IMG/VR virus record: IMGVR_UViG_2671180656_000001
Reading direction: 5' to 3' (one strand)
DNA: 4,042 nt
Origin: a virus
Lineage: Duplodnaviria; Heunggongvirae; Uroviricota; Caudoviricetes
Below are positions 1 to 3,000 of this stretch, piece by piece. The position numbers were made by a program. Positions within the stretch are counted from its first letter, which is position 1, and the number at the start of each line of letters is the position of its first letter.

Positions 1-3000
1 TTTGGAAAGATGGTGAAGAAGGTGCTTATGCGATGGGTTATGAGGATGGGCGTGACAAAACGGTAATTGCAGTAATGAAAGCCATCAGGGCCGCAGGAAT
101 CAAAGAAAAGAATTTCGATTAAGCAAATATCACTTCAATAAATCGCTTTTAAGGCATCACAATCGCTCTGTAGCGAGGTAAACGCGTGCAAGGCATGCCA
201 ATAAGCAGCGAGAATGAAAAATGCGTCAGAATGCGTTTGAGGAGGTTTTAAGAAATGAGTACGATAGCTGAGCTTGTCAGGGCTAATTTTCGTGAAGAGT
301 TGGTGCGTTGGTATCGGTATCGTTCATCGTCCAGTTTGCCGCTTGATGAGTTGTATGAGCATTCACCTGCCGCACGACGCTATCCGCGTGACCGTGTTCT
401 TCGACGGTTGTTCAAACTCAACAATGAGTTTCAGCGCAACAGAATTATCCGGAGTCTGGATTTAAAGTGAAGGAGTGAGCATGAGCGACCTATCATTAAC
501 CCAGCCAAAGCTAAAAGAATGTCCGTTTTGCGGCGGTAATGCTCGTCTGTGGGTTGAGGCCGGAATAAATATTGATGTGTGGGGCTATGCAGAATGTGAC
601 CTCTGTGAAGCCAGGGTGGCATGGGCACCATCAGTTGCTGCGGCTACTGAAAAATGGAACCGGAGAGCAGGAGATGAAGCAAACCTTTCTGCTTCGCAAC
701 GAAGCAATCAGAAATAACGCCATAGACGCCATTCTCTCACTACCCATCGACGACAAGTCACCCCACGAAGTCCACGTTAAAGAACCCAAGCGCAGCAAAG
801 CGCAGAATGACCGTATGTGGCCGATGCTGAACGATGTTTCGCGTCAGGTGCTATGGCATGGTCAACGGCTGGCGCCGGAAGACTGGAAAGACCTGTTCAC
901 TGCCCTGTGGCTTAAGACCAAAAAACTGGAGCAACGAAGTGTGCCTGGTATCGACGGTGGCGTTGTCATGCTTGGCGTGCGTACCAGCAAAATGCGAAAG
1001 GCCAGCATGACTGAGCTTATCGAAATCATGTTCTGGTTCGGCTCAGAGCGCAACGTGCGGTGGAGTGATGACTCCCGGCGAGAGTATGAATGGTCACAAC
1101 GAAAAGGTAGGGCTGCATGACTATCAAATCAAATACGCCAGCACACGACAAGGACTGCTGGCAAACGCCGCTCTGGCTTTTTGATGCGCTGGATATTGAG
1201 TTTGGATTCTGGCTGGATTCAGCTGCGAGCGACAAAAACGCTCTGTGCGCTCACTGGCTAACTGAGGCTGACGACGCGCTAAATTCTGAGTGGATAAGCC
1301 ACGGTGCAATCTGGAATAACCCACCGTACAGCAATATCAGGCCGTGGGTGGAAAAAGCCGCTGAGCAGTGCATACAACAGCGACAGACGGTAGTTATGCT
1401 TGTGCCAGAGGATATGTCAGTCGGATGGTTCAGCAAGGCTCTGGAGAGTGTTGACGAAGTTCGCATCATCACTGATGGACGGATTAATTTTATCGAACCA
1501 TCGACAGGGCTGGAGAAGAAGGGAAACAGCAAAGGCTCCATGCTGCTGATTTGGCGACCGTTCATCAGTCCTCGACGGATGTTTACTACCGTATCCAAAG
1601 CGGCATTGATGGCGATCGGGCTGGGCGTCAGGAGGGCTGCATGAGGCGACAGCGACGAAGTATCACCGACATCATCTGCGAAAACTGCAAATACCTTCCA
1701 ACGAAACGCTCCAGAAATAAACGCAAGCCAATCCCAAAAGAATCTGACGTAAAAACCTTCAATTACACGGCTCACCTGTGGGATATCCGGTGGCTAAGAC
1801 ATCGTGCGAGGAAAACAAGGTGATTGACGTGATGATTTATTCGGGGCTATATTCCTCAAACGCCAGCAAAATCTGGCGTCGGGATTGGCGTCCTGGATAG
1901 AGACCGCGACAGATACACGCCGCGAGCGTGTTTTTTATTGTCGTATGCACGCGCACATCTGAATTATGGTGGGCTGTGTGGGGGCGGAGAGATCCGCGCC
2001 GGTCGGTTTCCCGGTTACGCCAACCCTGCACAGTTCACCACCAGACGATTGGCGTCGTCGGTGGTGAGTTATTAAGAAACCACCAGAGGGCGTCATTATG
2101 ACAACTCAAATTTCTGTTGAAACTCTCTCCCCGATCACCCATAACCAGATTCCTGTTATTACCACCGAACTTTTGGCGCAGCTTTACGGCACTGAGCCGG
2201 TGCGTATTCGCCAGAATCATCATGAGAACAAAGTACGCTTCGTTGAAGGGAAACACTTTTTCAAAGTTGTTGGTAATGACCTTAAAGAATTGCGGGTAGC
2301 TTTAAACTACTCACAAAATTTGCGGGTTACTTTAAGTAACTCACAAAATTTGCAAGTGTTCGAAAAACTGGAAGACTGCTATTTCAGCCAGTGCGAGAAA
2401 AATACTGGCAAACAAGAGAAGAAGCTCAACGGGCTTTCCGCAAAAGAAACAGACAGCCTTGTATGGCTGTGGGATTATGCCAACCGCTCACAGGCATTGT
2501 TCCGTGAGTTGTATCCCGCATTAAAACTGATTCAGTCTGGCTATTCCGGCATATGCCACGACTACGGCTATGAGTTCTCGTATATCATCGGGAGGGCGAG
2601 GGGCGTTTTAATTAATCACACGCGGGATATAGATATTTATGAGCCTGACGGGCCGACGAACCTTCTGGCATGGGAAAGGCTTAAGAACAAAGAGTTGCCG
2701 CCTTCACTGCATCGCTACTGACAATTGACAACTTAACAAACCCAGCTTCGGCTGGGTTTTTTATTGCTGAATTTTCAATGTGAGAGGACATGACAATGAA
2801 TGAGCTGATAAATAGCAATGCCATCAAAATGACAAGCATTGAAATCGCTGAGTTGGTGGGAAGCCAACACGGTAATGTCAGAATATCAATAGAACGTCTG
2901 GCAAAGCGTGGGGTGATTCAACTTCCTTCAATGCAAAAAGTTGAAAATAAACAAACAATTAGCCCTAACAAATTCACAAGCGTGTATATATTCGAAGGCG

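Follow-up and report, generated by a model that had tools for sequence, protein, structure and literature searches.

An orphan Dam-family adenine methyltransferase gene, probably GATC-specific, in the nin region of a Shiga toxin-converting lambdoid phage

The record IMGVR_UViG_2671180656_000001 of the IMG/VR collection (Caudoviricetes) contains a 4,042-nucleotide stretch of DNA, analysed here in its entirety and referred to as the window, in which an open reading frame (ORF) encoding 175 amino acids lies between the genes ninB and ninE. It is highly likely that this ORF encodes an orphan S-adenosylmethionine (AdoMet)-dependent DNA adenine-N6 methyltransferase that is specific for GATC and is produced by coupled translation from the delayed-early pR/nin transcript. 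This reading has its firm footing in the family membership of the protein, the conservation of its motifs, its near-identity to a characterised orthologue, and the lytic-cycle expression of that orthologue. The gene itself is already known: it is the small dam gene long familiar from the nin regions of Shiga toxin (Stx) phages and other lambda-like phages. Its dam annotation dates from the genome publications of VT2-Sakai and 933W, it has since been cloned, and more than a quarter of the complete Escherichia coli genomes carry it, so that it carries little weight as a discovery. The shared label "Dam", however, hides that the PF05869 family to which the protein belongs is unrelated to the Dam of the host, and many lambdoid and Stx phages carry this second GATC methyltransferase in dam+ hosts.

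Family membership, conserved motifs and predicted fold

The predicted protein matches the PF05869 "Dam" profile with 216.4 bits (cut-off 28.1; E 2.6e-64; profile positions 1-166 of 169) and the equivalog TIGR01712, "phage N-6-adenine-methyltransferase", with 264.2 bits (cut-off 97.05; E 3.3e-79; positions 1-165 of 165). Additionally, it matches phrog_111, "DNA methyltransferase". The coding assignment of 1117-1644 is far beyond chance. By these profiles the ORF encodes a full-length member of the PF05869/TIGR01712 family of phage N6-adenine methyltransferases, in agreement with the initial annotation of the window, which had placed it among the Dam-like phage enzymes. The family is represented by 8732 clusters (E ≤ 0.001) in a library reduced to 50% identity.

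Residue conservation was read from an alignment of 26 homologues that share 59-98% identity (A1) and from a second alignment that includes the Dam proteins of phages T1 and HP1 (A2). The 48 invariant columns of A1 include T17-P18, L33-D34 and N68-P-P-Y71, the last of these being catalytic motif IV (Table 1). The presence of NPPY at residues 68-71 had been pointed out earlier, as a departure from the DPPY of canonical Dam. The motif is there, but it does not represent a departure. NPPY is the norm for the PF05869 family because 238 of 265 collected family proteins, as well as T1 and HP1 Dam, carry it, with NPPF in a further 6 and DPPY in none; most of the proteins with neither NPPY nor NPPF are fragments. 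The Dam proteins of E. coli and T4, which have DPPY, are members of another family, PF02086 (MethyltransfD12), and the profile of this family, used as the test for a canonical Dam, found no match to the window protein at E ≤ 0.01.

Two further elements precede motif IV. Neither T17 nor P18 varies among the 26 homologues or in T1 and HP1 Dam, and by analogy with the gamma-class amino-methyltransferases the W15-Q-T17-P18 element may correspond to motif X. The element that follows it, F31 to S38, includes the strand with which the Rossmann fold begins in the model. Its residues F31, L33, D34 and A36 show no variation among the 26 close homologues, and L33, D34 and A37 show none in the T1/HP1 alignment; the element would contribute to AdoMet binding. 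The motif order TP ... LD.AA ... NPPY suggests a gamma-like arrangement.

Neither sequence nor profile searches of the PDB retrieved a solved structure of a relative. The 26-sequence alignment was used to build an AlphaFold2 model (mean predicted local distance difference test score (pLDDT) 78; predicted template modelling score (pTM) 0.79), in which the protein is predicted to form a compact alpha/beta Rossmann-type domain followed by a C-terminal helix, without an extra recognition domain. When the model was compared with the PDB using Foldseek, the best matches were the PCIF1/CAPAM cap-specific adenosine methyltransferases (E 2e-4 to 5e-4, TMq 0.51-0.58), and E. coli Dam was matched weakly (E 0.04-0.2, TMq about 0.3). 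A viral fold library returned many phage "DNA N-6-adenine-methyltransferases" with TMq up to 0.85, and PCIF1-like proteins of giant viruses lower in the list.

Relation to VT2-Sakai dam and target specificity

The window protein is 98.9% identical to the product of orf32 of phage VT2-Sakai (173 of 175 residues). The only differences, I60V and L169Q, are both conservative and affect positions that vary among homologues. In the deposited record (AP000422) the VT2-Sakai gene is named dam (H0105) and carries the note "similar to 933W L0094, HP1 Orf13 and T1 M.T1". Among the ORFs of at least 80 amino acids in all six frames of the 60.9-kb VT2-Sakai genome, orf32 is the sole one with a [DNS]PP[YFWH] motif, and it is also the only methyltransferase annotated in this phage; Orf4, which adjoins int, is a DUF551 protein and not a methyltransferase. 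Because no other VT2-Sakai ORF has an amino-methyltransferase motif IV and no other methyltransferase is annotated in the phage, orf32 can be equated by elimination with M.EcoVT2Dam, an enzyme reportedly cloned by Radlinska and Bujnicki in 2001.

Several papers cite M.EcoVT2Dam as targeting GATC (PMC6602927; also PMC7139368, PMC7556043). Likewise, M.EcoT1Dam is listed as a G(m6)ATC-modifying enzyme (PMC4996451), and a cloned prophage relative, M.Btr190III, which shares 35% identity with T1 Dam, was active on GATC (PMC4996451). A common rule for transferring a recognition motif asks for an identity of at least 80% over a coverage of at least 80%, which the window protein easily exceeds. Since it is 98.9% identical to the product of VT2-Sakai dam, which is cited as GATC-specific, this specificity should be transferable to the window protein. 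The initial annotation had treated the target specificity as unknown; that view is superseded by the near-identity to VT2-Sakai dam, with T1 Dam and M.Btr190III directed to GATC as well.

GATC is itself rare in the DNA concerned. The window contains 6 sites, where 14.8 ± 3.6 are expected, and the VT2-Sakai genome contains 159 sites where about 269 are expected, an observed-to-expected ratio of 0.59. The corresponding ratios are 0.63 for HP1 and 0.78 for T1; HP1, T1 and VT2-Sakai all encode a GATC methyltransferase.

Gene boundaries, expression and the surrounding nin region

The methyltransferase ORF runs on the + strand from an ATG at 1117 to a TGA at 1642-1644. Its start sits within gctgcATGActatc and its stop within gctgcATGAggcgac, so that it is embedded between ninB and ninE by an ATGA overlap on either side, an arrangement already noted for this ORF and read directly in the sequence. 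AGGAGG precedes the downstream overlap (1641-1644). Tight gene packing with ATGA overlaps is a long-described general trait of lambdoid nin regions (PMC8022706). The overlaps suggest that translation of the methyltransferase gene is coupled to that of its neighbours, and ATGA-coupled translation within a delayed-early operon would therefore lead to synthesis of the enzyme on infection or induction. A scan of the window for promoter and terminator motifs yielded counts no higher than in shuffled sequence, and thus gives no evidence of a promoter dedicated to the methyltransferase gene.

Expression has been documented for the dam gene of phage Phi24B (CM2, 528 bp), whose product is 100% identical to the VT2-Sakai protein NP_050531 (PMC3342100). 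This product was picked up in an antibody-based screen, the level of its transcript changed significantly upon induction with norfloxacin, and the gene was among four CMAT genes showing a lytic-cycle expression pattern (PMC3342100). The expectation that the window gene is expressed upon induction is supported by this pattern.

The gene is an orphan, as had been claimed for it, with a phage context and no adjacent endonuclease. No restriction endonuclease is encoded in the window, where every other sizeable ORF belongs to a non-restriction family, and the adjacent cognate endonuclease that would mark a type II restriction-modification system is absent from the window. In VT2-Sakai, no restriction endonuclease is annotated anywhere in the phage.

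A 12-bp direct repeat, AGGGCTGCATGA, closes both ninB and the methyltransferase gene. NinB ends in GRAA and the methyltransferase in RRAA; both proteins end in RAA because the identical repeat ends both genes. If the two copies recombined, the methyltransferase gene would be removed precisely, leaving ninB joined to ninE with an ATGA overlap, and the repeat pair looks like a boundary of the mosaic modules of lambdoid phages. The corresponding empty site, with ninB joined to ninE across the 12-bp repeat, had no exact match in IMG/VR, and a megablast search with an artificial ninB-ninE junction returned dam-containing phages only, among the 40 matches listed.

Among 5426 complete E. coli genomes, 1566 have the gene, with identities of 95-99% or higher and as many as 5 copies in a single genome. 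These copies are annotated as "phage N-6-adenine-methyltransferase" and lie between NinB and NinE. Many damaged or fused copies also occur in public collections. They include a methyltransferase-NinE read-through fusion of 233 amino acids (41 members), fusions to the O protein or to other N-terminal partners, one cluster representative with NSPY in place of NPPY, and the copy of Stx2a_F349, which is annotated as a pseudogene.

By megablast the whole 4-kb window is 99.5% identical to a set of Stx1a-converting phages and 97.4% identical to VT2-Sakai-like Stx2 phages. It is a classical nin region of an Stx-converting lambdoid phage (Table 1). The 3' end of the Lar-like gene overlaps the start of ninB, and with the methyltransferase gene this places two functions related to restriction and modification in one operon. 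The most likely start of ninB, the ATG at 674, gives a protein of 148 amino acids, in agreement with the 447-nucleotide H0104 of AP000422; the RefSeq version of ninB is longer and starts at a TTG at 572. The gap that follows ninE, about 270 bp in length, contains a promoter-like site (TTGACG-18-TATATT at 1824-1853, matching at 10 of 12 positions) and, at 1915-1931, a terminator-like hairpin followed by a T-run, and in the matching region of VT2-Sakai an ORF of 57 amino acids (orf34) is annotated. Finally, the ORF6N antirepressor gene has, relative to VT2-Sakai, an in-frame deletion of 111 bp (37 codons) at 2355/2356, directly after 2.1 copies of a 30-bp tandem repeat (2290-2353); the deletion removes the C-terminal part of the ORF6N domain. 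The window differs in size by the same amount from the 99.5%-identical Stx1a phages (4042 versus 4153 bp). This deletion has no relation to the methyltransferase.

Table 1. Positions of the methyltransferase gene, its sequence elements and the neighbouring features in the window
Feature	Position	Strand	Remarks
DUF7301	255-470		profile/family assignment
Lar-like restriction alleviation gene	481-717		PF14354, E 2e-9
ninB, Orf-family recombination mediator, upstream operon partner	674-1120	+	PF05772, E 9e-49; phrog_72
12-bp direct repeat, left copy at gene boundary	1109-1120	+	
ATGA overlap, ninB stop TGA (1118-1120)/methyltransferase ATG (1117-1119)	1117-1120	+	gctgcATGAct
dam-like methyltransferase gene, 175 aa	1117-1644	+	PF05869, TIGR01712, phrog_111
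W15-Q-T17-P18, motif X-like "TP" element	1159-1170	+	start of helix 19-29
F31-W-L-D34-S-A-A-S38, motif I-like, putative AdoMet-binding element	1207-1230	+	strand 31-35 and loop
Catalytic motif IV, N68-P-P-Y71	1318-1329	+	codons aac cca ccg tac; invariant in A1 and A2
12-bp direct repeat, right copy at gene boundary	1633-1644	+	
ATGA overlap, methyltransferase stop TGA (1642-1644)/ninE ATG (1641-1643)	1641-1644	+	gctgcATGAgg
ninE, downstream operon partner	1641-1823	+	PF05322, E 8e-44
Gap after ninE	1824-2097		
ORF6N/P22_AR_C antirepressor	2098-2721		family assignment
Terminator-like hairpin	2738-2759		
Rha/KilAC antirepressor (roi)	2790-3518		family assignment
ninG/rap	3518 to window end		family assignment

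Proposed role, alternative explanations and known systems

In the mechanism that we propose, the protein is a small single-domain lambdoid-phage "Dam", an orthologue of M.EcoVT2Dam, that would most likely methylate adenine within GATC, which is also the site of host Dam, with its NPPY motif IV binding the flipped adenine and without a partner restriction enzyme. Transcription of its gene would start at pR and, after N antitermination, proceed as part of the delayed-early nin operon; translation would take place through termination-reinitiation at the ATGA overlaps. The enzyme would most likely serve the phage by keeping its fast-replicating DNA fully methylated at GATC where host Dam cannot keep pace or is missing. 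Full methylation would shield this DNA from GATC endonucleases that are sensitive to N6-methyladenine (m6A) and from MutH-type processing of under-methylated DNA. The virion DNA of lambda and of P22 is under-methylated by host Dam (PMC8022706).

Several considerations weigh against a GATC-specific enzyme with this role. That orf32 is M.EcoVT2Dam is concluded by elimination, from the gene name in the deposited record and from secondary citations, and to this exact allele GATC specificity would be carried over by sequence identity. Strict GATC specificity is not guaranteed, because over-expression of M.Btr190III led to substantial off-target methylation (PMC4996451). The protein as modelled lacks a recognisable target-recognition domain, and its family lacks a detectable solved structure. 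In lysogens, moreover, the activity would be masked by host Dam, and any role in dam+ hosts is conjectural.

One alternative is that the DNA specificity of the enzyme is relaxed or broader, extending to GATC and related sites or to a shorter core, and that it works against restriction in general instead of mimicking Dam. A protein of merely 175 amino acids without a separate target-recognition domain would be compatible with such breadth, the operon also has a Lar-like restriction-alleviation gene some 400 bp further upstream, and other prophage methyltransferases are non-specific, though these are of different families (PMC3299994). However, GATC is the primary site of every characterised family member that we traced, off-target activity has appeared only upon over-expression, and the methylomes of lysogens of Shiga toxin-producing E. 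coli show no extra attributable m6A motif, though the gene is probably not expressed in lysogens. We consider relaxed specificity unlikely. Also unlikely is the more general proposition that such a minimal enzyme, with a PCIF1/CAPAM-like predicted fold, is not a strict GATC DNA methyltransferase in vivo, whether through relaxed specificity or through a second physiological substrate such as RNA, single-stranded DNA or replication intermediates, although another Stx-phage "DNA methyltransferase" unexpectedly proved to be of this sort.

The fold comparison bears on another explanation, in which the physiological substrate is RNA or a single-stranded nucleic acid and methylation of GATC in DNA is a side activity of over-expression. 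The closest solved folds to the model, PCIF1/CAPAM, are methyltransferases that form N6,2'-O-dimethyladenosine at the mRNA cap, E. coli Dam matches weakly, and PCIF1-like giant-virus proteins are among the viral fold matches. There is also the precedent of another Stx-phage "DNA adenine methyltransferase", an MT-A70-type enzyme that prefers 16S rRNA in spite of its annotation (PMC10810198). That enzyme, however, is the product of a different gene and belongs to a different family (DPPW, near int, partner-dependent), and T1 Dam is cited as having been purified and characterised as a DNA methyltransferase. Furthermore, where a bare Rossmann core is all that is alike, the fold is a poor guide to substrate, and the confidence of the model is moderate (pLDDT 78). 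An RNA substrate is very improbable. Even less credible is an inactive remnant, that is, a decaying passenger gene without enzymatic function. Although some copies are disrupted, such as the Stx2a_F349 pseudogene and the NSPY representative, and truncated or fused forms are common among the matches, the window copy is intact, of full length and retains all invariant family residues. The gene is also kept at 95-99% identity in the 1566 E. coli genomes, and the family is very large, with its 8732 representative clusters at 50% identity.

A GATC-specific orphan enzyme can be set beside several known systems. The Dam proteins of E. coli and T4 carry out the same reaction as the window protein, methylation of adenine at N6 with AdoMet as the donor, and are likewise reported to target GATC. 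These enzymes, however, are alpha-class members of PF02086 (MethyltransfD12) with DPPY, whereas the window protein has NPPY, is about 100 residues shorter and, unlike them, has no DNA-recognition domain; the name that they have in common refers to specificity and not to descent. PCIF1/CAPAM, the top structural match to the predicted fold, has a motif IV of the form N-P-P-aromatic. It is nevertheless a eukaryotic multi-domain RNA enzyme with 14-15% identity to the window protein, and the resemblance is confined to the catalytic Rossmann core.

M.EcoGV and M.EcoPA8orf6770P resemble the window protein in being orphan adenine methyltransferases; many of the Stx phages that have the one also have the other, and their annotation, too, is that of GATC DNA methyltransferases. 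They differ in being of the MT-A70 type with DPPW, in being encoded near int, in needing the PNB-2 partner and in preferring 16S rRNA (PMC10810198). Identity of the window protein with this prophage 16S rRNA methyltransferase of Stx phages was ruled out, the latter being an MT-A70/DPPW protein encoded near int and absent from VT2-Sakai (PMC10810198). Likewise ruled out was membership in the non-specific class of Hia5, M.EcoGI and M.EcoGII, which form a different family of Dam-related alpha-class proteins of at least about 280 amino acids with DPPY and FxGxG (PMC3299994); the window protein has neither of these motifs.

The Dam proteins of T1 and HP1 (orf13) are, like the window protein, orphan phage enzymes of the PF05869 family (236 and 251 bits, respectively). 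They are GATC-specific and share with it the NPPY motif IV and the "TP" and "LD.A" motifs. They are, however, merely 35-37% identical to it, T1 Dam has a 45-residue N-terminal extension and an internal insertion, and the two genes reside in a virulent Drexlerviridae phage and a P2-like phage, in contrast to the nin operon that holds the window gene. M.EcoVT2Dam, the product of VT2-Sakai dam (orf32, H0105), has its gene in the same position, ninB-dam-ninE, with the same ATGA overlaps as the window gene, and this dam gene is identical in Phi24B and Min27 and 99% identical in HK97 (PMC3342100).

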